Assembly (NCBI GenBank): GCA_014584295.1
Contig: JACTNC010000058.1
Span: 148,669 to 212,668 of the forward strand
Length of the DNA stretch: 64,000 nt
From: Verrucomicrobiota bacterium
Lineage (GTDB): Bacteria; Verrucomicrobiota; Verrucomicrobiia; Opitutales; Opitutaceae
Direction: 5' to 3'
Shown here piece after piece: positions 25,798 through 52,217 of this stretch. Each line of letters opens with the position of its first letter. Position 1 is the first letter of the stretch. A program made the position numbers and the translations under genes. Under the pieces are notes generated by a model. It saw nothing but the letters and a program-made list of their open reading frames with translations. It was not told the DNA's origin and made no database searches.

Positions 25798-25813
25798 AGC
25801 AGCAGGAGTGCCA
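25798..25813 (-). promoter_or_regulatory. sigma54-type promoter upstream of flgF
   Basis: The minus strand reads TGGCACTCCTGCTGCT. The -12 C (25799) is 17 nt from the flgF ATG (25782). Confidence 0.6.
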
Positions 25814-25887
25814 GAACCGTAACTTATTGCATGGCCGATTTTTGTAAAACATTCCTAGTATATCAAGGATCGGGAAATGCTGGGAAG

Positions 25888-25902
25888 CGGCAGGTTTTGC
25901 CG
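25888..25902. promoter_or_regulatory. palindromic upstream element, flgF
   Basis: CGGCAGGTTTTGCCG. Its centre is 83 bp upstream of the -24 GG of the flgF promoter. Confidence 0.55.
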
Positions 25903-25964
25903 GGGGCAACCCAATGGCAGGCGACATGCGCGGATTGGCACATAGTATCAATCTTCTCTCACCG

Positions 25965-26130
25965 GGAGGGGCACGCTTCGTCGTGACCTGTATTGGATCG
26001 ACGCGTAGGGGGTGCTTCGAGCTCCGACTTTGATTGCAGCGGACCAATCGATCTCGAATCGGATTTCGATCCTTGGGACCTGGAACGTGCCGCTACTTTT
26101 CGATCCGGGCACGACGAAGCGTGCCCCTCC
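25965..26130. repeat. 166-bp MITE/REPIN-like element B
   Basis: Terminal inverted units at 25965-25988 and 26107-26130. The structured interior (..GACCAATCGATCTCGAATCGGATTTCGATCC..GGGACCTGGAACGTGCC..) is shared with element C. Confidence 0.85.
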
Positions 26131-26198
26131 AGGTCGCGATCAGAACCAACCACCCATCCTCAAACCCGGGTATACTTCGATCCCGTCCTGCCAATCGG

Positions 26199-26453
26199 TC
26201 AGCCTGCGGCTGGATAGAGGCACTCCACTTCGATCTTTTCACCGCAGGTGCACGTGATGAGCAGGCGCACCACCTTGTCCCCTTGCTTGATGCACTCGAT
26301 ATTGGGACCGTGCTTGTGGTCGGACCCGGATGACTTCAAGCCGGGCTGCGAGGCGAGAGAAGGTATTCCGGCAAGGCCGGTATCGGTTCCCTCTACAGTT
26401 GGGCGAAGCGCGGGCGTGCCGCTCGAAGGTCTTCCGCTGAGAAAGGGTTTCAT
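26199..26453 (-). CDS. hypothetical 84-aa protein translationally coupled to motB
   Basis: ATG at 26451-26453 overlaps the motB TGA (26450-26452) as ATGA. Cys-containing C-terminus IECIKQGDKVVRLLITCTCGEKIEVEC. No family recognised. Confidence 0.45.
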   Translation of the reverse strand: MKPFLSGRPSSGTPALRPTVEGTDTGLAGIPSLASQPGLKSSGSDHKHGPNIECIKQGDKVVRLLITCTCGEKIEVECLYPAAG

Positions 26454-27232
26454 GGAGTGAGAGTCGCTACGGGCTGCGCTTGCGGGCGGTTTTCACGTTT
26501 CAACACGGAAAGGCTGATCGTGACACGCTGGTTTGTTTCAGATTCCGGCGGCTCCAGAGGCATCGGCCGGGTGTCTGAAAACCCGGTTACCCGCGCTATC
26601 AATCCCGGGTCAACCGCGTAATAGGTCAGGCTGCGCCGCGCGGCGTTTGCCCGGTCCGCCGACAGTTCCCACGCCGTGTAATCCGGCTTCTTGAGTTCGA
26701 GCCCCTTGCGCGTGTGCCCTTCAATCACCACGGAAAATTTGTGCCGGTCGATCATCCACGCGAGGTTCTGCATGATGAACCGGCCCCACTCCGTGAACTC
26801 GGCGGTATTCTCGACGAAGAGCGGTTTGCGCGCACGATCGAAAAGCGAGATGCGCAGCCCGTCACTTGTCACCTGGATGTCAATGGGCTTGTCCTTCAAA
26901 TCCTGATCCATGTGGAGCAGCCGATAGAAGTCCTTGGCGAGTGAGTTGAGAAACTGGAGATCGACCGTGCGCGGGTCTGTCTGAGGTTCGCCACCCTTGG
27001 TGGCATCATCCGTTTTCCCCGAACTCGATTCGGACTTTGTCGCTGTCTTGCCGTCGAGATTGAGGACACCTGCGCTCGCAGTGAGCGGCGACTTGAACGG
27101 CTGCTGGAAATAGCGGGAGGTGGCCACAAGCACCTCCTTGTCCTGGGAGCAGATCCACAGCACCATAAACAAGGCCATCATCGCGGTGACGAAGTCCGCA
27201 TAGGCCACTTTCCATGCACCTCCTTTTGCCAT
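26450..27232 (-). CDS. motB: flagellar motor stator protein MotB (OmpA-like)
   Basis: N-terminus GAWKVAYADFVTAMMALFMVLW (plug/TM with conserved Asp) and an OmpA-like C-terminus VIEGHTR...SADRANAARRSL. Confidence 0.85.
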   Translation of the reverse strand: MAKGGAWKVAYADFVTAMMALFMVLWICSQDKEVLVATSRYFQQPFKSPLTASAGVLNLDGKTATKSESSSGKTDDATKGGEPQTDPRTVDLQFLNSLAKDFYRLLHMDQDLKDKPIDIQVTSDGLRISLFDRARKPLFVENTAEFTEWGRFIMQNLAWMIDRHKFSVVIEGHTRKGLELKKPDYTAWELSADRANAARRSLTYYAVDPGLIARVTGFSDTRPMPLEPPESETNQRVTISLSVLKRENRPQAQPVATLTP

Positions 27233-27258
27233 GATCGTATGGGTGATAGGCCTGCCAA

Positions 27259-28122
27259 CTACCGGCCTGCAGGCATTCCCTTGAGTGTGGTTTCCATTTC
27301 CTCGCCGCCAGGCTGGACAGAGCTGTCAAGCGAACGCCGGGCGATCTCGACCGCGGTGAGCGGCGCCAGCCCCTTCGCAAAACTTGAGACGGCCACAAGA
27401 ATGCAGCGCAGGTACTGACCGTCGCTCTGATTCATGAACCGGATGCGGTTCGAGAGCGGCAGCACAAAACCATATGCCACAAAAATTCCTAACAGCGTGC
27501 CAGTGAGCGCAGCGGCAACCTTTTCACCCACGGCCTCGGGTCCGTCGGCAATCGCGCTCATCGTGTTGATGATGCCCAGCACCGCTGCGACAATTCCGAT
27601 CGCGGGGAGGGAGTCGCCGACCATCTGGAGTACGTGCACAGGATGATCGCTCTCCTCGGCCTTGGCGTTCATTTCCGCCGACATGAGCTCCTCGAGCTGG
27701 TCGGGTTTGATCTTACCGTCGATCACCGGCTTGATTCCATTGACCAGAAATTCCATGCGCTCCTTGTTTGCGGTGATGGAGGGATACTTTTTGAATATCG
27801 CACTTTGTGACGGATTCATCACGTGCTCCTCCAATGCAATGAGGCCGTTCCGGCGGCCAACCATGAAGATCTCGTAAAGCATCTTCAGAAGATCGAAGTA
27901 CTCCGTCTTGCCCACACCCTTACCGAAGGCGGCAAGTTTGATCTTGTGGATCATCTCCTTGATGACATTGGCCGGACTCGCAATCACAAGCACACCCATG
28001 CCAACCCCGAGAATCACAACGAACTCCGATACATGCAGCAGCACCAGCGGATTGCCGCCCGCAAGCATGAAACCGCCCAGTGTCGAGGCGACAACGATGA
28101 AACTGCCGATTAAAATGAGCAT
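27259..28122 (-). CDS. motA: flagellar motor stator protein MotA
   Basis: Four-TM MotA/TolQ/ExbB pattern, with C-terminal LPAIGIVAAVLGIINTM...ALTGTLLGIFVAYG. ATG at 28120-28122. Confidence 0.9.
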   Translation of the reverse strand: MLILIGSFIVVASTLGGFMLAGGNPLVLLHVSEFVVILGVGMGVLVIASPANVIKEMIHKIKLAAFGKGVGKTEYFDLLKMLYEIFMVGRRNGLIALEEHVMNPSQSAIFKKYPSITANKERMEFLVNGIKPVIDGKIKPDQLEELMSAEMNAKAEESDHPVHVLQMVGDSLPAIGIVAAVLGIINTMSAIADGPEAVGEKVAAALTGTLLGIFVAYGFVLPLSNRIRFMNQSDGQYLRCILVAVSSFAKGLAPLTAVEIARRSLDSSVQPGGEEMETTLKGMPAGR

Positions 28123-28136
28123 GTATCTGGGTGAGG

Positions 28137-28164
28137 TTAACGGCCCGATGGGGAGGACTCTTTA
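28137..28164 (-). promoter_or_regulatory. sigma28 (FliA)-type promoter upstream of motA
   Basis: The minus strand reads TAAA-GAGTCCTCCCCATCGG-GCCGTTAA (TAAA-N16-GCCGTTAA against the consensus TAAA-N15-GCCGATAA). The -10 ends 14 nt before the motA ATG (28122). Confidence 0.6.
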
Positions 28165-28373
28165 GTGAGGCATGGGAATCACCCCTCGAAACGCGGATTT
28201 CGTTCCCTCGGAAGAAGGCAAAAAAAGTCCTCAAGTTTTCGGAGTATCGTTCCCAAACACCCCAGGACATTCCCCAACTCCGGCAAGCCCCGCAACCAAG
28301 GCTACCGCATCAATCGCAGACCAAAGGCCATGCAGGCGCCTTCCTTCCGCGGGATCCCATCGGATCCACGCGC

Positions 28374-29162
28374 TCACCTGTCGCGCACGCGCTTCAGATA
28401 TGCACGCAGCCCGAGGACGGTCTGCGCGTGAATCTGGCAGATTCTCGATTCCGTGAGATTGAACACCGCGGCAATTTCAGCGAGGCGCATGTTCTGGTGA
28501 TAGTACATCGCGATGATCTTCTTCGGAATCTCTGGAAGCTCGGCAATCCGCTGCGCCATGAGCTGCATCAACTCCTCCTTCTCCATGCGATCACGGACCG
28601 AGACATCGCTCTCGTCGGCAATCAGCTCATGAAGCGATGTGCCATCACTGTCCTCGTTCTCAGTCGTCTGATCAATCGCCACAAAGCACACCGGACGGGC
28701 CTCCTCCATCCACTTGGCATATTCCTTCGGAGTGAGTCCCAGATGCTCGCGAACCTCCTCCTCACTCGCGGCGCGTCCGAGCTTCTGCTCAAGTTCGTTG
28801 ATGGACTCCTTGAGTTTCTTTGCCTTCGCGCGTGCGCGTCGCGGACACCAGTCAAGCCGGCGAAGCTCATCCAGCACGGCGCCACGGATGCGTGTGCTGG
28901 CATAGCCGGCAAAAGTGTGACCCTGCTCGGGGTCATACTTGCGGACCGCGGCGATGAGCCCGGTGACACCGACGCTGTAGAGGTCGTCGACATCGACATG
29001 AGCGGGCAGGTTGATCTTGATGCGGTCGACGACGTTTCGAACGAGTGGGAGGTAACGTTCGATCAGGTCTTTTTCGTCAATGGAACCCGTGGAGGATTGA
29101 TAGGCCCGCCAGGCATTGGCGGCGGCTGCGGGTTGGGCATAGGCGAGTGCGGCGTGTTTCAT
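28374..29162 (-). CDS. fliA: flagellar sigma factor sigma28
   Basis: Sigma70-family regions 2-4: YLPLVRNVV.., DLYSVGVTGLIAAVRKYDPEQGHTFAGYASTRIRGAVLDELR, and region 4 HTH MRLAEIAAVFNLTESRICQIH. About 260 aa, as for FliA. Confidence 0.9.
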   Translation of the reverse strand: MKHAALAYAQPAAAANAWRAYQSSTGSIDEKDLIERYLPLVRNVVDRIKINLPAHVDVDDLYSVGVTGLIAAVRKYDPEQGHTFAGYASTRIRGAVLDELRRLDWCPRRARAKAKKLKESINELEQKLGRAASEEEVREHLGLTPKEYAKWMEEARPVCFVAIDQTTENEDSDGTSLHELIADESDVSVRDRMEKEELMQLMAQRIAELPEIPKKIIAMYYHQNMRLAEIAAVFNLTESRICQIHAQTVLGLRAYLKRVRDR

Positions 29163-29213
29163 TGGGGGCTGGATTTCAGGATGTGGATTGAGTGTGGAAA
29201 TTGAATGGACTCA

Positions 29214-29489
29214 TCAGCGCGTCTTCGCGGGCGCGGCCGCTGCGACGGGCACTGCCTTTTCCGCTGCTTGGGCCTCTGCCTCGGCGCTTGCGGCAATGCG
29301 GTTCAATGCGATGGCCTCGCCAAAAACCTTGATCACGACCGACCAGAACCAGCGGAAGAGCAGGGCGCCCGCCAGACAGCCGATTGCGGCATCGCGAAGG
29401 ACGAGATCAGGGGCGCGATCGGCAAGGAATCCCGCGGCGGCGGTGAGGGAGAATCCGGCGAACCCGCCGGTGAGAAAAATGAATTTCAT
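29214..29489 (-). CDS. hypothetical small membrane protein (91 aa) at the position usually occupied by flhG
   Basis: ATG start. Two hydrophobic helices (FIFLTGGFAGFSLTAAAGFL; IGCLAGALLFRWFWSVVI) and an Ala/Glu-rich tail. Lies 12 nt after flhF. Confidence 0.5.
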   Translation of the reverse strand: MKFIFLTGGFAGFSLTAAAGFLADRAPDLVLRDAAIGCLAGALLFRWFWSVVIKVFGEAIALNRIAASAEAEAQAAEKAVPVAAAAPAKTR

Positions 29490-29501
29490 GATGTGCGTGA
29501 A

Positions 29502-30623
29502 TCAGGATCCGGGTAGTGTCTTGCGAAGGACGGCATTGATCGCGTCCGTCTCGATATCGCCCGTCAGGCTCGGCCCGGTTGCGAGAAACAGGGGCGTCAC
29601 GTCGCCATCGACGAGGAAGTCGAGGAGTCTTCCCCAATGCCCAAGTTCGTCGAGATGCGTGAAGACGAGATGCGTCGCACCCGCGGAGCGGCCCGCATTG
29701 TACGCAGCGCGCAGGCTGGCGAGATCGTGCAGCGCGTTCAGGACGAGCACTCTTCCATCGATGCGTTCGGTATCCAGAAAGCGAACGATGCTGGCATTGG
29801 CCGCGGCTTGCAGCGAAAGAGCCGGAAGATCCACGAGAACGAAGTCCTCTGCCGAGGCATCCTCGATCCTACGCACGCCGGGTTCTCCTGGTATGTAGTG
29901 TTCCAGCGTCAGGCCGACCGCCTCACAAAAAACTGAAAGTCCTTCGGTCAGATTGGGTCGGTCAAACTCTGCCTTGATCACCCTGCCCTTGCGTCCACGA
30001 ACGAAAACGGACTGGGAAAGCCATTTGGAAAGCGCGGTGGTTCGACCCGAGCCCGCAGTGCCCATGAAGGCCGCGCGCAACGGGAACGCACGTGCTGCCC
30101 TCGAAGCGGATCCCGATCGCAACGCCTGCCCAAAGTCGGCAAGTGCACGATAGAGCGGAGCATCCGCACCAAGACTCGGCAGGGTCTGGAATCGCGAGAC
30201 AAGCGCCTCGGAGAAGCCAGAGCGCCTAAGCAGATCCGGGAGCCGCGGAGCGGATTCCGCCACACGCGCCGGCGTCTCGGAATTCAATCGCTCACGAACG
30301 GGTTGTTCGTGAGCACCACGCTCCGCCGTCGCTCCAGCTTCAAGCGTCCCCGGAACCGGTGCATTCTCGACGGAGCGTCCGGAAATCGCGACCGTCTCCT
30401 CGGCTTCTCCGGAATCGAGCTGTGCAATCACCTCCAGGCGCGGACGCCCAAAAAGGCCGGAGAGCCCCTGACCCGGAAGCTGCCGCACGGAAAGAACCTT
30501 TGCTTTCTCTCCCAGTTGCGTGCGAATCGCCTGAACCGCCTCTTCCGCAGACCGCACGACGAGCTTGTAGATCGCATTGGCCGGGGAACGATTTTCAGCG
30601 GTGGCGAAAGCGGAGGGGGACAT
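29502..30623 (-). CDS. flhF: flagellar biosynthesis protein FlhF (SRP-type GTPase fold, degenerate motifs)
   Basis: N-terminus YKLVVRSAEEAVQAIRTQLGEKAKVLSV and a C-terminal NG-like domain, located after flhA. The G boxes read GTAGSGRTT, VLVDLPALS and FTHLDEL instead of GxxGxGKT, DTAG and TKLDE. Confidence 0.75.
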   Translation of the reverse strand: MSPSAFATAENRSPANAIYKLVVRSAEEAVQAIRTQLGEKAKVLSVRQLPGQGLSGLFGRPRLEVIAQLDSGEAEETVAISGRSVENAPVPGTLEAGATAERGAHEQPVRERLNSETPARVAESAPRLPDLLRRSGFSEALVSRFQTLPSLGADAPLYRALADFGQALRSGSASRAARAFPLRAAFMGTAGSGRTTALSKWLSQSVFVRGRKGRVIKAEFDRPNLTEGLSVFCEAVGLTLEHYIPGEPGVRRIEDASAEDFVLVDLPALSLQAAANASIVRFLDTERIDGRVLVLNALHDLASLRAAYNAGRSAGATHLVFTHLDELGHWGRLLDFLVDGDVTPLFLATGPSLTGDIETDAINAVLRKTLPGS

Positions 30624-30637
30624 TCGGCATCGCCTGA

Positions 30638-30653
30638 TGCTAGGCTCGTGCCA
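30638..30653 (-). promoter_or_regulatory. sigma54-type promoter upstream of flhF
   Basis: The minus strand reads TGGCACGAGCCTAGCA. The -12 C (30639) is 16 nt from the flhF ATG (30623). Confidence 0.6.
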
Positions 30654-30759
30654 ACGAAATCATGTGTATCGTATAATACTGTTTATTCGTGAGTTAAACA
30701 ATTTTATCTAGGGCTCATTACCTAGATACGCCGGTCTGAGATGGCACCTGATTGTCCAG

Positions 30760-30774
30760 CGGCAGAAATTGCCG
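30760..30774. promoter_or_regulatory. palindromic upstream element, flhF
   Basis: CGGCAGAAATTGCCG. Its centre is 115 bp upstream of the -24 GG of the flhF promoter. Confidence 0.55.
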
Positions 30775-30925
30775 GAAAACATTGCCTGATACCCATTATC
30801 GGCCGAATCCGCAGCGGACTTCACTCCAATCCTATGAAGGTCCATCTGCAGATTGGAGTATGGACGCAGATTTCAGAGACAATCCACTCAGTCCGAGCAG
30901 GGTGGATCACGATCCTCCGTCACCG

Positions 30926-31092
30926 GGAGGGGCCCGCTTCGTCGTGACCGGATTGGTATCGAAATGTGGCTGGAGCTTCCAGCTCCCGATCTTGATCCGA
31001 GCAGACCAATCGATCTCAAATCGGATTTCGATCCACGGGACCTGGAAGGTCCCGCTACCAGCCAAACCGGTCACGACGATGCGTGACCCTCC
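30926..31092. repeat. 167-bp MITE/REPIN-like element C
   Basis: Terminal units at 30926-30949 (GGAGGGGCCCGCTTCGTCGTGACC) and 31069-31092. The interior has hairpins GGAGCTTCCAGCTCC and GGGACCTGGAAGGTCCC and aligns with element B. Confidence 0.85.
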
Positions 31093-31130
31093 AATGACAC
31101 GAGCAGATTCAAGCGCGAGAGACCAAATCC

Positions 31131-33344
31131 CTACGCTGCGCGAAGTGCAGGTGCTGCTGCCTCAAGCCGAGCGACGAGGTGCGGAGGAATCGTCACGATC
31201 GCCGTGTTCTCAATCTCCGTGCTCGGCGGCAGTTCCTGAAATGCCAGAACAACAAGTCTCGGGAATGACGGTTCAAAGAAGCGTTTCAACGCAAGTCTGA
31301 GCTCGGTGCTCACAACAAGAACCGGAGTCAGGTTCTGCTGCGTGAACTCCGCCACACGTGCGTTCACCTCGGTCAGCAGATGTCGGCCAAGCATCGGATC
31401 CAGGGCAAGGCCCACTTCACTCGGCGTGCGATGGATGCGTGCAATCAGCACCTGCTCGAGTCGCGGATCAAACGTCGCTGCCTTGAGCAAGCCCGGGCGG
31501 TATTCCAGCTCAGGCACAAAATAGAGCCCAAGGCGGCGGCGTGCGAGTTCGCTGAGATCGTCCGGGTTCTTCGTGACGCTCGCGAAATCGCCGATGCACT
31601 CGAGGATGAGCGGCAGATTGAGAATCGAGAGATTTTCCCGCAGTAGGTTCTGCAGCACGCGCTGGATGATTCCGAGATTGACGAGGTCCGGCAGCAGCTC
31701 CGAAACCAGCGCGGGGTGCGATTCCTTGAGATGATCGATCAGCGTCTGCACGTCCTGCCGGCCTAGGAGGAGATGGGCGACACTCTTCAGCGTTTCCGAC
31801 ACATGCGTGATCATCACCGACGACGGATCCACGACGGTATAGCCGTTGAGCTCTGCCGTCTTTCGCTCGGTCTCGTCGATCCACACGGCCTCAAGGCCGA
31901 ACACCGGCTCGCGCGTGGGCAGGCCGCGAAGCGCAACCGTGCTGTTGGAAACATTCATGGCCATGCTGCGGCCGGGTTGAACCTGCCCCTTGGCCACCGT
32001 CTTCCCACGCAGGAGGAAGCGGTACTCATTTGCCTCGAGTTCGAGGTTGTCGCGCACCGATACGGGCGGAACAAGTATGCCCTTTTCGCGCGCGAGTGTC
32101 TTGCGCACGCCGGTTACGCGCGACAGGAGATCCCCTCCCTGCTTGGCATCGGCCAGCGGAAGCAAGCCGTATCCAATCTCGATCGCAAACACATCGAGGT
32201 CCACAAGCTTACGAAGATCCTCGGAAATCGCGCCTTTGCCGGAGGACGAAGCGCCTTCCTTTCCACCGGCGGCCGACTTGCCGGACCCAGCGGCTTTGGC
32301 CGTCACCGCGGCAATCTCCGCCGAGGCCTCGTCGACACGCTGCTGCTGCTTGAGAATGCGGGCAATGTATCCTCCGACAAGCGCCAGGCTCAGGAACGGC
32401 AGTGCGGGCATGCCAGGCATCAGGCCAAACACTCCCAGCATCGCCGCCGAAATTCCGATGGCGCGGGGATACCGGACCAGTTGTCCCCCGATCTGCTGTC
32501 CGAGGTTTCCAGTGCCTGCCGCACGCGTTACCAAAATGCCCGCGCCAACCGAAACGATGAGCGCCGGAATCTGCGAAACCAGGCCGTCACCGATCGACAA
32601 CAGCGTGAATTTCGTCGCGGCCTCCGAAAGCGTCATGTCCATCTGCAGCACGCCAATCGCGAAACCGCCGATGACGTTGACGAGCGTGATAAGGATGCCA
32701 GCAATTGCGTCGCCTCGAACAAACTTGGAGGCACCATCCATCGCACCGTAGAAATCAGCTTCCTTCTGGACCTTTTGGCGTCGGGCGGTGGCGGTGGCCT
32801 CGTCAATGATGCCCGCGTTGAGTTCGGCATCGATCGCCATTTGCTTGCCGGGCAGGGCGTCCAGCGTAAAACGCGCGCTCACCTCCGCTATGCGGCCAGC
32901 ACCCTTCGTGATGACCACGAAATTGATGACGACGAGAATGAGGAAAACCACAAAACCTACGATGTAGTTGCCCTGGATGACAAAGTGACCAAACGACTCG
33001 ATCACATGGCCCGCCTCGCCCTTGGTGAGAATCAGCCGCGTCGAGCAGATGTTGAGCGCGAGGCGGAAGAGCGTTAGCGCAAGCAGCAGGGTGGGAAATC
33101 CGGCAAATTCGGGCGGATCCTTCACGTAGATCACGATCAGCAGCATCAGCAGCGAAACCCCCATCTGGAGCGCGAGCATGACATCCAGCGCCAGTGCCGG
33201 CAGCGGCACCAGGAGCATGAGCACCGTCATGAAAAGCGCTCCCGTAAAGATCAGGTCGGCGCGCTTGAGCAGATCGACACGCGCCCCCTTCGCGGGCAGT
33301 GACTGAGGAACGACAGAGGGATCGGTTGCAGCAGCGGAAGCCAT
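31131..33344 (-). CDS. flhA: flagellar type III export gate protein FlhA
   Basis: 737 aa. FHIPEP-type region FVRGDAIAGILITLVNVIGGF and a typical cytoplasmic domain. Confidence 0.95.
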   Translation of the reverse strand: MASAAATDPSVVPQSLPAKGARVDLLKRADLIFTGALFMTVLMLLVPLPALALDVMLALQMGVSLLMLLIVIYVKDPPEFAGFPTLLLALTLFRLALNICSTRLILTKGEAGHVIESFGHFVIQGNYIVGFVVFLILVVINFVVITKGAGRIAEVSARFTLDALPGKQMAIDAELNAGIIDEATATARRQKVQKEADFYGAMDGASKFVRGDAIAGILITLVNVIGGFAIGVLQMDMTLSEAATKFTLLSIGDGLVSQIPALIVSVGAGILVTRAAGTGNLGQQIGGQLVRYPRAIGISAAMLGVFGLMPGMPALPFLSLALVGGYIARILKQQQRVDEASAEIAAVTAKAAGSGKSAAGGKEGASSSGKGAISEDLRKLVDLDVFAIEIGYGLLPLADAKQGGDLLSRVTGVRKTLAREKGILVPPVSVRDNLELEANEYRFLLRGKTVAKGQVQPGRSMAMNVSNSTVALRGLPTREPVFGLEAVWIDETERKTAELNGYTVVDPSSVMITHVSETLKSVAHLLLGRQDVQTLIDHLKESHPALVSELLPDLVNLGIIQRVLQNLLRENLSILNLPLILECIGDFASVTKNPDDLSELARRRLGLYFVPELEYRPGLLKAATFDPRLEQVLIARIHRTPSEVGLALDPMLGRHLLTEVNARVAEFTQQNLTPVLVVSTELRLALKRFFEPSFPRLVVLAFQELPPSTEIENTAIVTIPPHLVARLEAAAPALRAA

Positions 33345-33380
33345 GGGAAATTCGACGAGTGAGAAATTCAGCGATCAGAT

Positions 33381-34505: not shown

Positions 34506-34522
34506 GGCCTCCCGTCGGGGAA

Positions 34523-34538
34523 TGCAAGGACAGTGCCA
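34523..34538 (-). promoter_or_regulatory. sigma54-type promoter upstream of flhB
   Basis: The minus strand reads TGGCACTGTCCTTGCA (perfect consensus). The -12 C (34524) is 19 nt from the flhB ATG (34505). Confidence 0.7.
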
Positions 34539-34611
34539 CGATGCACGGGTGTTATGTGTCTATTATGCTATCAACATCTTACGAGATTCTCATCGGATAC
34601 AAAACGGCACC

Positions 34612-34626
34612 CGGCAAAATCTGCAG
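34612..34626. promoter_or_regulatory. palindromic upstream element, flhB
   Basis: CGGCAAAATCTGCAG (one arm mismatch). Its centre is 82 bp upstream of the -24 GG of the flhB promoter. Confidence 0.45.
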
Positions 34627-34658
34627 TATCCGCTATCGGGCGTTCAGGAAATGCAGCC

Positions 34659-34752
34659 GGAGCTTCCAGCTCCCGCTCTCGTCCCCGTCAGACCGGCCGA
34701 TTTCAAACCGAATTTCGATCGTCGCACAGCCAATTGACATTGTTCCCAACCT
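34659..34752. repeat. partial copy of the B/C-type element interior
   Basis: Starts with GGAGCTTCCAGCTCCCG, identical to element C, followed by a diverged ..CCGATTTCAAACCGAATTTCGATCG.. Lacks a left terminal unit. Confidence 0.5.
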
Positions 34753-35009
34753 GGACGGGCAAGCATCGTCGTGCCCGGGATCGCTCCGCGCATTCCAACG
34801 CCAGCAAATTCGCCAATTCATCGGAATCGTGTTCTCTTGTAACAATGCCCCGGAGTAAAATCCTGGACACATCCCAGACCAAACCGGGCACGACGAAGCG
34901 TGCCCCTCCAAATTCACAGGAAGATCAATCTTCTCCTCAGCAAGTGCGCAGATTCCCAATCCATCTGATCCGCAGATTTCGCGGACGGACGCAGATTCTG
35001 GCATCGATC
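34753..35009. repeat. left about 257-bp direct repeat (second-type REPIN of 157 bp plus about 100-bp tail) flanking the TA cassette
   Basis: Units at 34753-34776 (degenerate GGACGGGCAAGCATCGTCGTGCCC) and 34886-34909. The tail AAATTCACAGGAAGATCAATCTTCTCCTCAGCA..GGCATCGATC is nearly identical to 36297-36395. Confidence 0.8.
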
Positions 35010-35024
35010 AGAGTCAAACTGTGG

Positions 35025-43197: not shown

Positions 43198-43211
43198 GGT
43201 GGGATGGTATG

Positions 43212-45092: not shown

Positions 45093-45161
45093 GGGGGCGA
45101 TCCATCCATGGCCGCAAAACGCACCGTCCTTGGCGCGCCAGAGTTGAAATGAAAGGGAGAG

Positions 45162-45782
45162 TTACGGGGATGTGCTTGCTGTCGTTGTCGAACGCGCGGC
45201 CTTCAGGAGCCGAATACGTTCCGAAAGATGGGCGGCCCGCTTGATGAGCGCGGGATCACCCGACTTGCCCATCTCCTCGAAGAGGGCACTGACTTCATCG
45301 GTCTTCATCAGCGAGAGCACCTTGACGACGGTCAGCTCGTCCATCTCGCGAAGGATGGCCACGGCTGTCTTCGGGGAAAGGTTGCGGTAGGTTGCGGCGA
45401 GCGTCTTGAGATTCTTCGCCTCGTCGGCCTGCACCTCGATCATCTTTGTCGCGATCTCGCTTCGCAGCGCCTCGATCTGCTTTCGGGTCTTTTCAAGTTC
45501 CTGCTGCTCGGACCTGAGGCGCGATTCCCGCGCGGCAATGCCCTCCTCACGCTGCTTCAGCACGGCCTTCTGCTCCTTCAGTTCCTTGGCGAGGGATTCC
45601 ACTTCAATCGTCCAGAAATCCCACGGAGGTTCCGGGCGCGCGGGCTTGCTCTCCGAAGCAAAGGATTCGGCGATCTGCCGCACCAGCGGTTTCGCGGTGG
45701 TCCATATCACCGCGGTGCTGGTGCCTACTCCCAGAATCAGACCGAGGACGACGATGACGATGGGATTTGATAGAAGTTTCAT
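45162..45782 (-). CDS. flagellar-operon protein with MgtE-N-like domain (YlxF/FlbB-like)
   Basis: N-terminal TM, a coiled coil, and a C-terminal AILREMDELTVVKVLSLMKTDEVSALFEEM (MgtE intracellular N-domain-like). ATG at 45780-45782 overlaps the fliJ TGA as ATGA. Same position as ylxF in Bacillus fla/che. Confidence 0.55.
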   Translation of the reverse strand: MKLLSNPIVIVVLGLILGVGTSTAVIWTTAKPLVRQIAESFASESKPARPEPPWDFWTIEVESLAKELKEQKAVLKQREEGIAARESRLRSEQQELEKTRKQIEALRSEIATKMIEVQADEAKNLKTLAATYRNLSPKTAVAILREMDELTVVKVLSLMKTDEVSALFEEMGKSGDPALIKRAAHLSERIRLLKAARSTTTASTSP

Positions 45783-46255
45783 GTCGGGCAAGTTTCGTTC
45801 CTGGCGAGCGCCCCCGCTTCACGGGCGGCCGCGGCACTCGTATGGTCGTCGAGAAATTTCTGCGCCTCTCGCTCGCAATCGCGGCGGTGTTCACCGAGAG
45901 CGGAGCTCCTTAGCTTTTCAATCAGGCGCACGTCGCGCCGCGTTTCCATCCACTCCTGCCGGCGCTGCTCACGCACCTGCTCCGCCCTGCCGACCGCATC
46001 ACGCGCTTCGGTTTCACGGGACACCAGATGCTGATGGGACCGAATGAACGCAGCTTGCTCGCCGGCATGAAATGCGAGTTGGCGCTCATCGAGCAGGACT
46101 TTTTCCATCGCGGTCTTTTCCGCCACAATACGCTCAACCTCACTCTCAGCCAAAATTACAGCGCGAACCGCCGAAATGAACGCATCCCGTGCACGGGCCT
46201 CGCGAGCCTCGCGCACGACGACCACTGACTTGAGGGGAAATTGAAAACGTTTCAT
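45779..46255 (-). CDS. fliJ: flagellar export chaperone/stalk protein FliJ
   Basis: 158-aa Arg/Glu-rich coiled-coil protein (MKRFQFPLKSVVVVRE..) directly after fliI. Confidence 0.65.
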   Translation of the reverse strand: MKRFQFPLKSVVVVREAREARARDAFISAVRAVILAESEVERIVAEKTAMEKVLLDERQLAFHAGEQAAFIRSHQHLVSRETEARDAVGRAEQVREQRRQEWMETRRDVRLIEKLRSSALGEHRRDCEREAQKFLDDHTSAAAAREAGALARNETCPT

Positions 46256-46266
46256 GGCGGTAACAT

Positions 46267-47589
46267 TCAGCCGACGATGCGTTTCAACTCTCCAAAGGTT
46301 GCTGCACGATCTGCCCGTTCATCGATTGCCTGTCGGAGGAACCCCCGCAGTGGCTCATGCAGGCTGACAGCCTGATCGAGCGCTGGGTTTGTGCCTTTTT
46401 GATAGGCGCCAATCGTGATCAGATCCTCGTTCTTGCGGTACAGGGCGAGATGCTCGCGCCCGCGACCGCTCGACGCAATTTCACCAGCGGAACAGATGTC
46501 GCGCGAGAGACGCGACACGCTCTCCAGCACGTCAATCGCGGGATAATGGCTGGCCTGTGCAAGGGAACGTGAAAGGACGATGTGTCCGTCGAGGATGCCT
46601 CGCACCGCATCGGCAACCGGTTCATTCATGTCATCGCCTTCAACAAGCACCGTGTAGAGCGCGGTGATCGTTCCGGTTTCTCCCGCACCCGCACGCTCAA
46701 GCAGACGAGGCAGAAGTGCAAAGACACTCGGTGTGTAGCCGCGCGTCGCCGGCGGCTCGCCAACTGCAAGGCCGATCTCGCGCTGGGCCATTGCAAAACG
46801 GGTCACGCTGTCCATCAACAGCAGCACATTCGCCCCGGCGTCGCGATAGGACTCGGCAACGGCCGTAGCGGTATAGGCCGCGCGCATACGGAGCGGAGCA
46901 GGAGTATCGCTCGTCGAGCAGACGATGACGGAGCGGGCGAGCCCTTCCTCACCCAGGTCCTTTTCAATGAATTCGCGCAATTCGCGGCCGCGTTCACCGA
47001 TCAGCCCCACCACGACGACATCGGCGTCGGCACCGCGGGCGATCATCGACAGCAGCGTGGACTTGCCCACTCCGGAGCCCGCAAAGAGCCCTACCCGCTG
47101 TCCGCGCCCGAGCGGCACAAAGGCATCGATCGCCCGGACGCCCGTGACAAACGGTTCATGAATGCGCCGACGCCGCAGGGGATGCGGAGGTTTCGACGCC
47201 GTGACATCACCCCGCTGCGTGCGGATCGGACCCATTCCGTCGATGGGGCGGCCGAGCGCATCCAGCACTCGACCCAGGAGCTGGGGTCCACGCGCCGGCA
47301 ACGGCGGGAAATCACAGGCCATCACTTCCGCACCCGCGTGCAACCCGGTCATTTCCCCGAGCGGCATCAACAGAACATGCTGGCCACGAAACCCGACGAC
47401 TTCGGCCAGGAAATCAAATTCACCACGATCGGAACGCAGTTTGCAGAGTTCCCCGAGACCGACGTTCGGTCCCTCACTCTCGACGATCAAGCCGGTGACA
47501 CTCGTGACGCGACCGAGCCGGCGCACGGCCGGCATGGCGCGCAACTGAACGCGGAGGTCGTCGAAGATCGGAGTGATGTCGGCAGCCAT
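46267..47589 (-). CDS. fliI: flagellum-specific ATPase FliI
   Basis: Walker A GLFAGSGVGKSTLL and Walker B VLLLMDSVTR; F1/T3SS ATPase fold. Confidence 0.95.
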   Translation of the reverse strand: MAADITPIFDDLRVQLRAMPAVRRLGRVTSVTGLIVESEGPNVGLGELCKLRSDRGEFDFLAEVVGFRGQHVLLMPLGEMTGLHAGAEVMACDFPPLPARGPQLLGRVLDALGRPIDGMGPIRTQRGDVTASKPPHPLRRRRIHEPFVTGVRAIDAFVPLGRGQRVGLFAGSGVGKSTLLSMIARGADADVVVVGLIGERGRELREFIEKDLGEEGLARSVIVCSTSDTPAPLRMRAAYTATAVAESYRDAGANVLLLMDSVTRFAMAQREIGLAVGEPPATRGYTPSVFALLPRLLERAGAGETGTITALYTVLVEGDDMNEPVADAVRGILDGHIVLSRSLAQASHYPAIDVLESVSRLSRDICSAGEIASSGRGREHLALYRKNEDLITIGAYQKGTNPALDQAVSLHEPLRGFLRQAIDERADRAATFGELKRIVG

Positions 47590-47599
47590 GATTCAGTGG

Positions 47600-48190
47600 T
47601 CAACCCGTGGCGAGGAACTCCCGACCAAGGGTATCGAGCTTGGATGCAAGCCGCGCATCCGTCAGACCGAAACGGCTGCGCACCTGGCAGTCTCCGGGGG
47701 CCAGCGACGGCGTAGCCGTTATCCGCAATCCCGGATAGCGGCTACTCCAGGCAGGGGAGATTTTTTCAAGGATAACGGCATCATGTGGGCTCACCAGGAG
47801 TTCGAGATTCTCTGTCTCTGGGTATAGCTGGCTGAGCGCCTCGGAGCAGATCTTTTCAATCGCCTCCGCAGGAGGTTCATAGCCCGCAAGCAGGCGTCGC
47901 ACAATTTCCATGACGAGATTAGGAAGGGCTGCGTGCACCTGTCGGACGATCGCGGCATCGGACTCGGCAAGTCTGCTGAATACGCCATCCTGAAGCGCTT
48001 GGACCTCGGCGCGAAATTCAACGAGTTGCTGACTCGCGAACGCCCGGGCAGAGTCCGCGCCCTCCTGAAAGCCGGCGACGCGGGCAGCGGCGACCTCGCT
48101 CTCGCTGAACTGCCGCGCAGACAACCCGGGAATCGTGGCCGATGCGAGCGGTCGATCGAAGGCGATGAGTTTGCGGAAAGGGATGGCCAT
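47600..48190 (-). CDS. fliH: flagellar assembly protein FliH
   Basis: 196-aa protein between fliG and fliI, with a FliH-like central/C-terminal region (..GFQEGADSARAF..). Confidence 0.75.
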   Translation of the reverse strand: MAIPFRKLIAFDRPLASATIPGLSARQFSESEVAAARVAGFQEGADSARAFASQQLVEFRAEVQALQDGVFSRLAESDAAIVRQVHAALPNLVMEIVRRLLAGYEPPAEAIEKICSEALSQLYPETENLELLVSPHDAVILEKISPAWSSRYPGLRITATPSLAPGDCQVRSRFGLTDARLASKLDTLGREFLATG

Positions 48191-48210
48191 GGTTGCAGGG
48201 GTGTGGTGTC

Positions 48211-49266
48211 TCAGGCGACGACTGCGGCCTCTGCTCCATCGAGGGAAATCGCACCCTCTTCCTCCAGCCGTCGAACGACCTGGATGATCGCTTCCTGCGC
48301 GATCTCCACGTCCTTCAGGCGCACGGCTCCGAGCATCGAAATCTCGTCGCGCAGGCTTTCCGCCGCGCGTTTCGAAATGGATCCATAGATCCTTTCCTTG
48401 AGCGACTCGCTCGCCGATTTCATCGAGGTCGCCAGATTCTGCGAATCGACTTCGCGCAGTACGCGCTGGAGATCCGCGGCCTGGAGGCGGCTGAGGTCCT
48501 CGAAGCTGAACATCTTTTTCCGGATCGCTGAACCGAGCGCACTGTTGCGCTCCTCGACACGGGCGAGCAGCCCTTTCGAAGTTTCCTTGTCGATGCTGTT
48601 GAGCAGGTCCGCCACCGCACGCACACCGCCGCTGCGGTGGAATGTGGGACGTGCCTTCGTATCAAAATGCTTTCCGAGGCTGCGCACGATCTTGCCAACG
48701 AGGTCAAGTGAAGTGCTGTCGATCGTGCCGAGGCGTTCGACCACCTCCTCACGAATCTCGGGGCTGAGCAACATGAAGATCTCCTTCGATTTTTCAGCAT
48801 TCAGGTACGAGAGCACAAAGGAGATGGTCTGCGGCTGCTCGTTCTTGATGAGGTTGAAAATCTGCCGACCTTCCATTTCAGCGATGTCCTGGATCACGTC
48901 CAGAGATGTGCCGCCAGGTGCGCAGCCCACGCGGCTTAGGATCGAGTTCGCCTTGTAGTCGCCCCGTACACGCTCGATGGCCTGGCGGGCATAATCAAGC
49001 CCACCGAGGGAGGACTCCATGCTCTCACCAATTATCGGCGCAAATTCGTCGAGCACCTGCCTGCGAAGGGCTTCTGGCACCATGGGAAACTGGCTCATCT
49101 CCCTGCAGACCTGCTCAATCTCGGCATCATCAAACATCTTCAGCACCTGCGCGGCAGAATCCGTGCCGACAACAATGAGGAACACCGCCAGCTTCTGAAT
49201 TCGGGTCAGCTTGCCGTAGTCGATTGCGGCGGGTGCGGATGATTCTGTCGCGGTGCTTGTTGCCAT
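48211..49266 (-). CDS. fliG: flagellar motor switch protein FliG
   Basis: LTRIQKLAVFLIVVG, the ..EVLREVDSQNLATSMK.. pattern and a C-terminal torque-helix region. Confidence 0.95.
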   Translation of the reverse strand: MATSTATESSAPAAIDYGKLTRIQKLAVFLIVVGTDSAAQVLKMFDDAEIEQVCREMSQFPMVPEALRRQVLDEFAPIIGESMESSLGGLDYARQAIERVRGDYKANSILSRVGCAPGGTSLDVIQDIAEMEGRQIFNLIKNEQPQTISFVLSYLNAEKSKEIFMLLSPEIREEVVERLGTIDSTSLDLVGKIVRSLGKHFDTKARPTFHRSGGVRAVADLLNSIDKETSKGLLARVEERNSALGSAIRKKMFSFEDLSRLQAADLQRVLREVDSQNLATSMKSASESLKERIYGSISKRAAESLRDEISMLGAVRLKDVEIAQEAIIQVVRRLEEEGAISLDGAEAAVVA

Positions 49267-49289
49267 GAGAAAAGCGTCCGATTTCGCGT

Positions 49290-50885
49290 CTAGGATTTCT
49301 TCACCGCAACCCAGTCACGCAGCGCAGTGCCAATGTTCGCGGGCTTCTGCTTGATGAGTTCGTTGAGCAGTTCAGGCGTCAGCGCGCCGCCACCCTGTAT
49401 CTGTCGCTGGGCATCGCGCGGATCCACGGTGAGCAATTCGACGGGGACGGATTCCGGCTTCTGGCGTCCCAGCATGCGCCAGAAGATCACGAGTACACCT
49501 ATTGCGACCGCAACGGCCACATACCGGCTGGCACCATCAATCCACCCCTGGACGCGCGTTGCCGATTCGATGCGCTCGATGCCGGCCGAAACGGTTTCCG
49601 ACTGGAAAGGAATTTCCTGCAGGGTCACGACGGAGTCGATCGACTGGCCGGCCGCGGGCTTCACCCCAAGGGCGTTGAGCACGATTTGACGGAGCGCCTG
49701 AAGCTCCTCTGGCGTGCGAGGCTGCGGGGTTGGTGCCGCGGATTCAGCACCCGGCGCGGCCGGAGCAGCAACCATGCGCTGAGCGACAAACACCGATGCG
49801 GTTATGTTCTTCAATGAACCCGGCTGGCGGGTGATGTTGGTCACGGACCGGTTGATCTCGTAAGTGGTTGTGCGATTCTTGCGATTGGACTCCGTCACGT
49901 TTGTCGGATGAGCCGCCTCGGCGGAAGGTATGCCCGGCTTGTCAGGCGTGTTCGCGGTGACACCAACCACGCCGACGTTGTGCCGTTCTGTGGAGTTGGA
50001 AATGTCATCAGTGGTTGTCTGCGTGCGCACCACCTGTCCGTCCGGGTCAAATTTCTCCTGCATCATGGTTGTGGATTCGGTATCGATCTCAGCCGACACT
50101 CGGACCACTGCGTTGCCGCTTCCGAGCACGGGGATCAGCATGCTCTCCACCTTTTTCGCCAGGTAGTCCTCGATCTGCTGGCGATAGCGCATCTGTGAGG
50201 AAGCGCTGCTGAGAAGCGGGTCCTGGCGCAAGTCCTCTGAAAGCACTCTGCCCTTCTGATCCACGACCGCCACCTGGTCTGGATTGAGTCCCTGGACTGC
50301 ATTGGCCACGAGGTGTCGTATGCTGTTCACCGCCTCCACTTCCAGTCGAGAGCCAGCAAGCTCCACAAAAACCGATGCGGTGGGCTTCACTCCCTGATCG
50401 GTCAGAAGCAGCCGGTTCTCCGGCTGCACGATCATGACACGCGCACTGCGTACGCCATCAAGCTGGCTGATGGTGCGTCCGAGTTCGCCCTGGAGAGCAC
50501 GCAAATAATTCGTGCGCTGTACAAAATCAGAAAGGCCGAACTGTCCCTTGTCGAAGATCTCGAATCCAACGCCATCACCGGTCGGCACTCCCTTGCCCGC
50601 GAGGTCCATGCGCAGGCGGTGCACCTGATCGGCGGGCACGTAGATCGTGCTGCCACCATTCGTCACCCGATGCGGGACGTTCTGGGACTGAAGCGTGCTC
50701 ACAATCTGGGCGGCGTCCTTTTCTGAAAGCCGTCCGTACAGGAGCTGGTAATCCGGCTGTCGCGACCAGATCACCAGGCCGATCAAGCCAGCGACGAGAG
50801 CTGCTGTGGCAATGGAGAGCGTGACGCGCTGATTGAGGCCAAGTTGTTTCCAGAGTCCGAGGAGGGAGGTGGCAAAGGATTTCAT
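49290..50885 (-). CDS. fliF: flagellar MS-ring protein FliF
   Basis: N-terminal TM, then YQLLYGRLSEKDAAQIVSTLQSQNVPHRV and LPxGxGVGFEIFD-type motifs, and a C-terminal TM. Confidence 0.95.
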   Translation of the reverse strand: MKSFATSLLGLWKQLGLNQRVTLSIATAALVAGLIGLVIWSRQPDYQLLYGRLSEKDAAQIVSTLQSQNVPHRVTNGGSTIYVPADQVHRLRMDLAGKGVPTGDGVGFEIFDKGQFGLSDFVQRTNYLRALQGELGRTISQLDGVRSARVMIVQPENRLLLTDQGVKPTASVFVELAGSRLEVEAVNSIRHLVANAVQGLNPDQVAVVDQKGRVLSEDLRQDPLLSSASSQMRYRQQIEDYLAKKVESMLIPVLGSGNAVVRVSAEIDTESTTMMQEKFDPDGQVVRTQTTTDDISNSTERHNVGVVGVTANTPDKPGIPSAEAAHPTNVTESNRKNRTTTYEINRSVTNITRQPGSLKNITASVFVAQRMVAAPAAPGAESAAPTPQPRTPEELQALRQIVLNALGVKPAAGQSIDSVVTLQEIPFQSETVSAGIERIESATRVQGWIDGASRYVAVAVAIGVLVIFWRMLGRQKPESVPVELLTVDPRDAQRQIQGGGALTPELLNELIKQKPANIGTALRDWVAVKKS

Positions 50886-50940
50886 GCGCCAGTCGCAGCG
50901 ATGGTTGGGAGAAGGATCAGGGTATGCGGCATGGGCTCAG

Positions 50941-51297
50941 CTATACAGGCATGCGCATCAGTTCCTGGTAGGAGTCGACCAGCTTGTTGCGCACCTCGAC
51001 CATCAATTGGAAGGCAACGCCGGCTTCCTGCATGGCGATGACACTCGTATGAAGCTGATCATTCTGACCCAGCAGAACCTGTCGCGTCAGCGCCTGCGCC
51101 TCGGCCTGCTTTCCGTCCACCGCTGCCACCATCTGCTCAAACACCGAACTGAAGCTCGCGGGTTTGGAGTCCGTCAACGGAATCGGTGTTCCGATCTTCG
51201 GCGCTGTCGGCGAAAACGGGCCTTCGACAGAGCTCGTGCCGGAAAGTCGCATGGGGAGGGATTGCTGAACACCGCCAATGGAACCAATGAGGGACAT
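50941..51297 (-). CDS. fliE: flagellar hook-basal body protein FliE
   Basis: C-terminus VIAMQEAGVAFQLMVEVRNKLVDSYQELMRM is typical of FliE. Confidence 0.85.
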   Translation of the reverse strand: MSLIGSIGGVQQSLPMRLSGTSSVEGPFSPTAPKIGTPIPLTDSKPASFSSVFEQMVAAVDGKQAEAQALTRQVLLGQNDQLHTSVIAMQEAGVAFQLMVEVRNKLVDSYQELMRMPV

Positions 51298-51330
51298 GAG
51301 AAATAGGAAGAGGGAAATGGGGTGCGGCGC

Positions 51331-51750
51331 CTATCGGCCGATTTCGAGTGCCTTCATGGCCATCTGCCGGGCGTTCTTCGCGACGGAGAGATTTGCCTCG
51401 TAGGCCCGCGTCGCCGTGATCAGATCAACCATTTCATAGGCAAGATTCACGTTGGGAAGCTGGACCATGCCGTCGGCGCCCGCATCGGGATGCTGAGGAT
51501 CGTAGACGCGCTGACCGGGTGACTTGTCGGTCGTGATTTCGCCGACCCTGACGGACTGAAGTGCCTCACCGGACATGCCCTGCTTGCGGAGGAGTTCGGT
51601 CTCAAACGACACCATTCTGCGCTGGTAGGGAGCTCCATCGGAGCCGCGCGTTGTCTGAGCATTTGCAATGTTCTGCGCAACCACGTCGAGGCGTGTGCGC
51701 TGCGCATTGAGGGCGCTGGAGGTTACATCAATTGCACCGATGAGATTCAT
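51331..51750 (-). CDS. flgC: flagellar proximal rod protein FlgC
   Basis: SALNAQRTRLDVVAQNIANAQTT and the C-terminus LPNVNLAYEMVDLITATRAYEANLSV. Confidence 0.9.
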   Translation of the reverse strand: MNLIGAIDVTSSALNAQRTRLDVVAQNIANAQTTRGSDGAPYQRRMVSFETELLRKQGMSGEALQSVRVGEITTDKSPGQRVYDPQHPDAGADGMVQLPNVNLAYEMVDLITATRAYEANLSVAKNARQMAMKALEIGR

Positions 51751-51806
51751 GTTTGGAGCGCAGAAAACGGTTCAGCAGGTCAAAATTTCCTGGGGTGGAA
51801 ACCTCA

Positions 51807-52187
51807 TCACACCGCACGTCCCGTGATCGCGAGGCGAAGCTGCTTTATGTTCTTGCTGATGAGATCCGTCAGAAATTCGTATTCGACCGTATTGCGGTTC
51901 ATTTCGAGAAGCTCCTTCTCCATTTCGACCGAGTTGCCATCGGGACGCACCGCGCGCGCCTTCGCATCTTCAGCGAGCACCGGTGTTACCCCTGAAAAGT
52001 CACTGCTTCCACCGGCCATGCGCGACTTGAGCTGTGCGGCAAAATCAGGCGAAAGGTCCAGCCGCCTGAAACCAGGCGTTTCCGCATTGGCGATGTTCGA
52101 CGCAATGGCGCTCTGTCTCAGGACCGACGCGTCTAGCAACTTGCGGGCGAGTTGGTAGTTGGCGGACTGAAAGATGGGATCGACCAT
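51807..52187 (-). CDS. flgB: flagellar proximal rod protein FlgB
   Basis: ATG at 52185-52187 gives MVDPIFQSANYQLARKLLDASVLRQSAIASNIANAETPGF, which aligns with FlgB N-termini. The 48 upstream codons of the track ORF cover the promoter. Confidence 0.85.
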   Translation of the reverse strand: MVDPIFQSANYQLARKLLDASVLRQSAIASNIANAETPGFRRLDLSPDFAAQLKSRMAGGSSDFSGVTPVLAEDAKARAVRPDGNSVEMEKELLEMNRNTVEYEFLTDLISKNIKQLRLAITGRAV

Positions 52188-52201
52188 GACCTCACCACCA
52201 T

Positions 52202-52217
52202 TGCAATGCCTGTGCCA
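52202..52217 (-). promoter_or_regulatory. sigma54-type promoter upstream of flgB
   Basis: The minus strand reads TGGCACAGGCATTGCA, a perfect TGGCAC-N5-TTGCA. The -12 C (52203) is 16 nt from the A of the flgB ATG (52187). Confidence 0.7.

Follow-up and report, generated by a model that had tools for sequence, protein, structure and literature searches.

The genes for the flagellar basal body and its export apparatus are found in the same order in distant bacterial lineages, and the question raised by the locus described here is from which promoters such a colinear block is transcribed in a member of the Verrucomicrobiota. In Bacillus subtilis (fla/che) and Borrelia (flgB), the order flgB-flgC-fliE-F-G-H-I-J-x-fliK-flgD-flgE-fliL-M-N-(x)-fliO-P-Q-R-flhB-flhA-flhF-...-sigma factor is part of long sigma-A/sigma-70 operons. 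We analyzed a stretch of 64,000 nucleotides (nt), hereafter the window (assembly GCA_014584295.1, contig JACTNC010000058.1, positions 148,669 to 212,668; coordinates below are those of the window), from a genome that the record titles of related loci place in Opitutaceae (Verrucomicrobiota, Opitutales). Its minus strand carries flgBC-fliEFGHIJ-orf209-fliK-flgDE-fliLMN-orf106, followed by fliOPQR, flhBA, flhF-orf91-fliA, motAB-orf84 and flgFGAHIJ-flgN-flgKL. As assigned by Pfam, this order matches that of Bacillus fla/che, in agreement with a preliminary description of the locus that had called it Firmicute-like; here, however, sigma-54 promoters stand at the head of the colinear block and within it. 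Our analysis indicates that the main flagellar cluster of this Opitutaceae bacterium is most probably transcribed from six such promoters, in front of flgB, fliO, flhB, flhF and flgF and inside fliK.

The preliminary description had named five sigma-54-type motifs. All five were found on the minus strand, each just 5' of the gene it was assigned to (Table 1), and the identities of these genes agree with Pfam. The GG-N10-GC spacing is exact in each of them, and two are perfect TGGCAC-N5-TTGCA sequences. The count itself did not stand, since a sixth motif inside the fliK open reading frame (ORF) had been missed, and this motif splits the proposed flgB..fliN unit. The window contains 11 sequences of the form TGGCAC-N7-GC, a number attained by none of 100 shuffles (expectation 3.5), and only four perfect sites are present in the whole 4.07-Mb assembly, two of them within the flagellar cluster. 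Among 157 good sigma-54 sites genome-wide, 15 lie 11-18 nt 5' of the ATG of a long ORF (5.2 expected), and 6 of these 15 fall in this 27-kb stretch. Sigma-54-like sites with short spacing in other parts of the genome are flanked by GC-rich, coding-like DNA and probably reflect chance. Sigma-54 itself is encoded by a 502-amino-acid (aa) ORF (G000:C13:95868-97376) with the RpoN box ARRTVAKYR and a Sigma54_DBD match of 196.9 bits; thus, the absence of rpoN, which the preliminary description had named as one finding that would speak against its promoters, does not apply to this genome.

Table 1. Flagellar genes, predicted promoters, enhancer-like sites and other features of the window.
Feature	Position	Strand	Sequence	Remarks
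Flagellar gene cluster	18057..52187	-		Pfam and start-codon contexts
flgB sigma-54 promoter (-24/-12)	52202..52217	-	TGGCACAGGCATTGCA	ends 14 nt 5' of ATG (52187)
fliK-internal sigma-54 promoter	43845..43860	-	TGGCACTGAAACTGCA	inside fliK ORF; ends 15 nt 5' of in-frame ATG (43829)
fliO sigma-54 promoter	39174..39189	-	TGGCACGCATCTCGCT	ends 15 nt 5' of ATG (39158)
flhB sigma-54 promoter	34523..34538	-	TGGCACTGTCCTTGCA	ends 17 nt 5' of ATG (34505)
flhF sigma-54 promoter	30638..30653	-	TGGCACGAGCCTAGCA	ends 14 nt 5' of ATG (30623); heads flhF-orf91-fliA
flgF sigma-54 promoter	25798..25813	-	TGGCACTCCTGCTGCT	ends 15 nt 5' of ATG (25782)
flgB enhancer-like palindrome	52327..52339	-	GGCAATATTTGCC	center 117 nt 5' of -24 GG; conserved island in diverged DNA
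fliK-internal enhancer-like site	43980..43992	-	GGAAAAATATGCC	center 127 nt from GG; in coding DNA
Second fliK-internal enhancer-like site	44053-44066	-	GGCAAAATTCTGCC	fliK coding DNA
fliO enhancer-like palindrome	39298..39310	-	GGCAAATCCTGCC	center 116 nt from GG
flhB enhancer-like site	34613..34625	-	TGCAGATTTTGCC	core 8/9 positions; center 82 nt from GG
flhF enhancer-like palindrome	30761..30773	-	GGCAATTTCTGCC	center 115 nt from GG
flgF enhancer-like palindrome	25889..25901	-	GGCAAAACCTGCC	center 83 nt from GG
motA sigma-28-type promoter	28138..28164	-	TAAAGAGTCCTCCCCATCGGGCCGTTA	TAAAG-N15-GCCGTTA; ends 15 nt 5' of ATG (28122)
fliA (sigma-28)	28374..29162	-		last gene of flhF unit; Pfam sigma-70 regions 2-4
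flhF	29214-30623	-		
fliK-like ORF, 626 aa	43212..45092	-		fast-evolving N-terminal part, C-terminal T3S4 domain
orf209	45162-45791	-		between fliJ and fliK
Third flagellin-family gene, 291 aa	16210-17085	-		directly after csrA
fliW and csrA	17161-17422 and 17439-17867	-		
PIN-domain toxin (Pfam) and upstream small ORF	35243-36051	-		in 2.2-kb fliR-flhB gap, repeat-flanked
REPIN-like repeats	22533-22651, 24114-24146, 25951-26132, 30844-31094, 34648-34981, 36132-36607		GGGGCACG...CGTGCCCC	hairpin

We fetched flagellar clusters from 16 relatives and flgB loci from public genomes (n = 80), and compared 117 non-identical promoter instances; these are phylogenetically related, so that counts derived from them overstate independent support. 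The motifs are kept at orthologous places in flanking DNA that has diverged. In a position profile of 112 instances, T, G, G, C and A were present at 0.93-1.0 and T, G and C of the second element at 0.85-1.0. The GG, the GC and the A of TGGCA are invariant, the spacer is not conserved, and the consensus reads TGGCAY followed by TTGCW; no signature other than that of sigma-54 emerged. How far each promoter can be traced differs. The flgB promoter was kept in 13/13 relatives covering the region and in about 60 of 70 Verrucomicrobiota loci, and that of flgF is shared by the genus and two further families of the order. The flhB promoter was present in all 12 family relatives examined. That of fliO is shared by five congeneric relatives but missing from more distant ones, and the flhF promoter was found only within the genus, in part of it. 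This differing phylogenetic reach suggests that an ancestral colinear operon was split stepwise as promoter-plus-enhancer modules were gained, with the flgB and flgF promoters being ancestral, that of flhB arising in the family and those of flhF and fliO within the genus. In eight Opitutaceae flgB loci (L042, L058, L060, L066, L067, L072, L086 and L087), TGGCAC is kept and TGGTA or TGTTA replaces TTGCT, so that the -12 element lacks its GC. These loci may have a non-canonical -12 element or an altered mode of control.

The motifs also have a characteristic position relative to the coding sequence. In the window they end 14-17 nt from the ATG, and throughout Opitutales the spacing is 11-21 nt, with a mode of 13-15 and never below 11. 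Geminisphaera colitermitum TAV2 and a Horticoccus strain (L057 and L049) share this geometry at flgB. Outside the order, the spacing to flgB is 20-27 nt in other Verrucomicrobia and 40-41 nt, with a Shine-Dalgarno (SD) sequence, in Armatimonadota. We regard the start codons as secure because N-terminal protein conservation begins at these ATGs (MVDPIFQ in FlgB, MAEHDDDSKTE in FlhB, MN[VI]G[ML]YQ in FlgF and MR in FliO); DNA conservation upstream of these genes collapses, with the exception of the motif. Mapped start sites in C. jejuni are found 8-13 nt 3' of the sigma-54 motif (PMC3847290). With a start assumed at about 12 nt after the GC, leaders in Opitutales should be about 0-10 nt long, mostly 1-5 nt, and the lower bound of 11 nt fits the rule that an ATG cannot lie upstream of the transcription start. 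An SD-like motif was found at 4 of 35 internal genes of the cluster, whose upstream 20 nt are C/T-rich with 17% G, and no conserved SD sequence was detected at the promoters among relatives. Of the four SD-like strings, three belong to genes next to a sigma-54 promoter and lie between the -12 element and the ATG. Because the internal genes generally lack SD sequences, in agreement with reports that some Verrucomicrobia are SD-scarce (PMC10783764), short leaders would be plausible for this organism. The 3' end of 16S rRNA was not found in the assembly. A promoter that abuts the start codon in this way suggests that sigma-54 transcription is coupled to SD-independent, near-leaderless translation.

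Alignments of the upstream regions revealed a single conserved island per promoter, a 13-bp palindrome of the form GGCAA-N3-YTGCC, which was found in 105 of the 117 instances. The distances from its center to the -24 GG fall into classes of about 61, 82, 95, 104.5, 116, 127 and 139 bp, i.e., with a period of about 11 (mean resultant 0.75). The palindrome thus appears enhancer-like, placed on a fixed face of the helix as expected for the binding site of a looping activator. The flagellar cluster is the only place in the genome where a good sigma-54 site has a perfect palindrome 50-140 bp upstream of it. An additional candidate member of the regulon, C18:32381, was rejected, as the site is weak, antisense to an apparently real gene and not followed by a credible ORF. 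Between the palindrome and the promoter, A+T content peaks at 73% against a background of about 40%, with a core tTtTAa-N5-Tg held in fixed register, -46 to -34 relative to the T of TGGCA. This element is probably a bend or a HU/IHF-type site. The assembly has one gene of the HU/IHF family (G000:C13:92512-92781), which shares a contig with rpoN and lies about 3 kb upstream of it.

Clear sigma-54 activators (Sigma54_activat) are encoded by at least six genes of the genome, only one of which is linked to flagellar genes. Its product (C13:307178-308776) has REC, AAA+ with GAFTGA, and HTH_8 domains, and the gene directly follows that of a hybrid PAS histidine kinase. The pair adjoins fliS in a second flagellar locus, which also contains two flagellin genes, fliD and flaG. 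An ortholog of the activator (at least 55% identity) was present in 22 of 23 relatives with a close flagellar FlhA, as against 3 of 17 without; in three relatives it is on the flhA contig, and in two of these about 10 kb or less from flagellar genes. With moderate confidence, this protein may be the enhancer-binding protein of the flagellar promoters. Because all six promoters carry the same type of palindrome, they might share a single activator rather than a two-tier system of the FlrA/FlrC kind. No sigma-54 promoter or palindrome was found upstream of the kinase-activator operon or the flagellin genes.

The 626-aa ORF that contains the sixth promoter had no Pfam match (E up to 0.01), none in NCBIfam (E up to 1) and no sequence match in PDB. 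Its position after fliJ/orf209 and before flgD fits FliK. Between relatives whose FlhA proteins are 97% identical, the N-terminal part of the ORF shows 35% identity and the C-terminal part 84%. In an AlphaFold model of the C-terminal part, residues 43-133 had a predicted local distance difference test score (pLDDT) of about 85, and Foldseek matched this part to FliK-C (2RRL, E 2.2e-4) and to the switch domain of PscP (5CUK, TMt 0.61). Judging from these matches of the modeled fold, the ORF is FliK. The neighboring orf209 gave a sub-cut-off match to the spirochaete periplasmic-flagellum collar protein FlbB (NF047368, E 8e-17).

The in-frame ATG downstream of the internal motif opens the 205-aa C-terminal (T3S4) part of fliK. 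The motif, the enhancer-like site and the AT-rich element were all found in 13 genomes, which belong to the family and to one other family. In these, an ATG lies 15 nt downstream (18 in one genome), the frame is open for 358-660 codons upstream, and the downstream part encodes 188-216 aa. In a more distant genome (L025), an equivalent promoter is located between fliK and flgD. By the geometry of the other five promoters, the internal one would yield an mRNA with the in-frame Met as its first codon, on which a T3S4-only product is encoded ahead of flgD, flgE and the genes beyond. The predicted 205-aa product would resemble T3S4-only proteins such as Xanthomonas HpaC, which likewise have a T3S4 domain without a ruler or secretion part; these are separate genes, whereas the isoform proposed here, deduced from promoter geometry only, is nested in full-length fliK. 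We tentatively propose, as a reading that could well hold, that the flagellar sigma-54 promoters of Opitutales produce mRNAs that are leaderless or nearly so, their ATG lying at about +2 to +8, and that one of them, in fliK linker DNA, gives rise to a ruler-less T3S4-only isoform. If true, a promoter and enhancer embedded in fliK in 13 genomes would mean a second FliK product.

The flhF unit would connect the sigma-54 promoters to a sigma-28 tier. FlhF matched the NCBIfam FlhF model with a score below the cut-off, and FliA matched FliA_WhiG (TIGR02479) with 247 bits, above the NCBIfam cut-off. The 91-aa ORF at the position of flhG (orf91) had no family match in Pfam or NCBIfam; it is kept in relatives, with 52-89% identity within the family. 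Since flhF, orf91 and fliA succeed one another with gaps of 12 and 51 nt and fliA has no sigma-54 motif of its own, the proposed control of fliA by sigma-54 appears a fair inference. The sigma-28-type site reported before motA was also located; at 15 nt it is as close to its ATG as the sigma-54 motifs are, and it is kept in about 10 relatives. Elements of the sigma-28 consensus form, TAAA-N15-GCCGATAA-like, occur both at motA and at the flagellin gene flaA on another contig (TAAAG-N15-TCCGTTA), in a genome that encodes FliA.

From these features we infer the following sequence of events at a promoter that comprises a palindrome 60-140 bp 5' of the GG, the AT-rich element, TGGCAY-N5-TTGCW and a start codon 11-21 nt further on. 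The response-regulator activator (REC-AAA+ with GAFTGA-HTH_8), encoded beside the hybrid PAS kinase in the fliD-fliS locus, would bind the palindrome, loop across the AT-rich element and remodel sigma-54 RNA polymerase. Transcription would start about 12 nt after the GC, giving the short leaders predicted above, and translation would proceed without an SD sequence, which this organism appears to use hardly anyway. As the flhF unit ends in fliA, sigma-28 would then drive motAB and the flagellin genes, the latter also carrying CsrA-type AAGGA sites.

The preliminary description had further concluded that the promoters partition the cluster into discrete operons. The promoters heading these units were found, but the ends of the units were not supported: terminator-like hairpins numbered 24 against 19.6 expected, unit ends included, which is not above chance, and the flgB..fliN unit is itself split. 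It is therefore conceivable that the sigma-54 promoters are real without partitioning the cluster, and that read-through from flgB, and perhaps from flgF, transcribes it as in Bacillus fla/che, with the internal promoters topping up. Besides the chance level of the hairpins, distant relatives point in this direction, as they have the same gene order and tight junctions with only the flgB and flgF promoters, sometimes also that of flhB; because they keep the order in the absence of the fliO and flhF promoters, the cluster can work without these two. In addition, the SD-like strings 5' of fliO and flhB would be usable on read-through RNA only. However, the gaps before the internal promoters are 166-2218 nt in this genome, strong GC hairpins of the REPIN-like repeats separate the end of each upstream gene from the enhancer that follows and could stop or process transcripts, and a toxin-antitoxin cassette lies in the gap between fliR and flhB. 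We consider such read-through possible but somewhat doubtful. The hairpins could act as transcript insulators or stabilizers, and together with the PIN toxin cassette they may insulate the units. In relatives, the fliR-flhB gap measures about 180 to 1000 nt. A search of the window with Rfam gave no match.

A very unlikely alternative is that TGGCA-N6-TTGC is an operator or a 5'-UTR (untranslated region) element, and that sigma-70-dependent transcripts start in the AT-rich block with leaders of 30-50 nt. The motif is indeed unusually near the ATG for a sigma-54 promoter, TTGATA-like hexamers in an AT-rich block are located 20-60 nt 5' of every motif, and a simple sigma-70 scan returned two sites upstream of flgF. 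However, the block has no conserved -35/-10 pair, and sigma-70-like hits (8 against 5.8 expected) were close to expectation. The sigma-54 consensus, in contrast, is matched at every defining position, with GG and GC invariably ten apart in the 117 instances, and the palindrome keeps the helical phase to the GG that is expected of an enhancer. The same motif also occurs 5' of flgB at an ordinary distance of 20-41 nt in other Verrucomicrobia and in Armatimonadota. Finally, that the motifs are functionless chance matches in GC-rich DNA is hardly conceivable: two TGGCAC-N7-GC matches of the window (38552 in fliP and 42222 in flgE), in which the -12 region is poor and a perfect palindrome upstream is lacking, probably are of this kind, and 16-mer matches allowing two mismatches were not more numerous than in shuffles, but the promoter motifs are kept across genera and families in diverged flanks, at a fixed spacing to the ATG and with a common enhancer.

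Several observations weigh against control by six sigma-54 promoters with near-leaderless mRNAs and a single activator. Apart from the relatedness of the compared instances, G-rich SD-like strings are present at flgB, fliO and flhB between the -12 element and the ATG, where they could serve read-through transcripts, and a few relatives have a GTG start of flgB at 11-13 nt, which does not sit easily with strictly leaderless initiation. Only 6 of the 117 instances (0.7 expected) match the strict E. coli IHF consensus (WATCAA-N4-TTR). The activator was assigned from gene context and co-occurrence only, and the co-occurrence has exceptions: the activator is missing from G038, and it is present in G001, G030 and G032 although these have no close FlhA.

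Among known systems, a similar regulatory logic is found in Vibrio cholerae and Pseudomonas aeruginosa, in which sigma-54 acts on export-apparatus, ring, rod and hook genes and on an flhF-...-fliA unit, and sigma-28 on motor and flagellin genes (PMC3930126, PMC7064773). A sensor kinase and an NtrC-type activator encoded with flagellar genes are a further shared feature. The hierarchy proposed in the preliminary description is supported for the succession of sigma-54 and sigma-28. Two successive activators with different targets (FlrA or FleQ, then FlrBC or FleSR) were not found, as here one enhancer type is present at six promoters and one activator is linked to flagellar genes, although a second activator is conceivable. 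No master regulator of the FleQ/FlrA type was identified in this genome. Other differences are that flhG is not found between flhF and fliA, that the gene order is of the colinear Bacillus/spirochaete type and that the promoters abut the start codons.

In Caulobacter crescentus, class III/IV flagellar promoters likewise have three parts, with FlbD bound to ftr enhancers at a distance of about 100 bp, an AT-rich bend or IHF-type element, and a -24/-12 sigma-54 promoter (PMC3930126, PMC3096577). However, early (class II) genes of Caulobacter depend on CtrA/sigma-70, whereas early genes of the cluster analyzed here share the sigma-54 architecture. Moreover, Caulobacter FlbD is controlled by FliX, whereas the candidate activator has a kinase partner. 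The Caulobacter ftr consensus presumably contains GGCA...TGCC-like half-sites and may resemble the palindrome. In Campylobacter jejuni and Helicobacter pylori, a single two-component activator system (FlgSR) and sigma-54 serve rod and hook genes (PMC3847290, PMC7064773), and sigma-28 and FliW/CsrA act on flagellin, much as predicted here. Export-apparatus and ring genes of these organisms are sigma-70 dependent and scattered, with ordinary leaders; in the cluster analyzed here, flhB, flhA, fliOPQR and fliF-G are also behind sigma-54 promoters.

In Proteobacteria and Campylobacterota, flagellar control by sigma-54 is textbook knowledge. For motility in Opitutia it has so far been a statistical prediction, computed from position matrices (PMC12316311). 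What is new here is the phased enhancer, the near-leaderless geometry as a rule of the lineage and the promoter nested in fliK. The locus thereby offers a concrete regulon for a poorly studied phylum, consisting of six promoters, a phased enhancer, a candidate kinase-activator pair and a sigma-28 tier.

Some additional features concern the flagellins and other sigma-54 targets. AAGGAAG/AAGGAAA immediately precedes the ATG in both flagellin genes of contig C13 (G000:C13:298349-300286), and the leader of flaA, downstream of its sigma-28 site, is about 100 nt long. Together with fliW and csrA in the window (Table 1), this suggests that flagellin is under FliW-CsrA control, as in Bacillus and Campylobacter. 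For the third flagellin-family gene, neither a sigma-28 nor a sigma-54 motif was found. Elsewhere in the genome, two sigma-54-like sites with AT-rich upstream DNA adjoin activator genes, one 34 nt 5' of a 237-aa ORF (G000:C46:20155, minus strand) and the other 14 nt 5' of a 671-aa ORF (G000:C55:5212, minus strand); these are probably non-flagellar targets of sigma-54.

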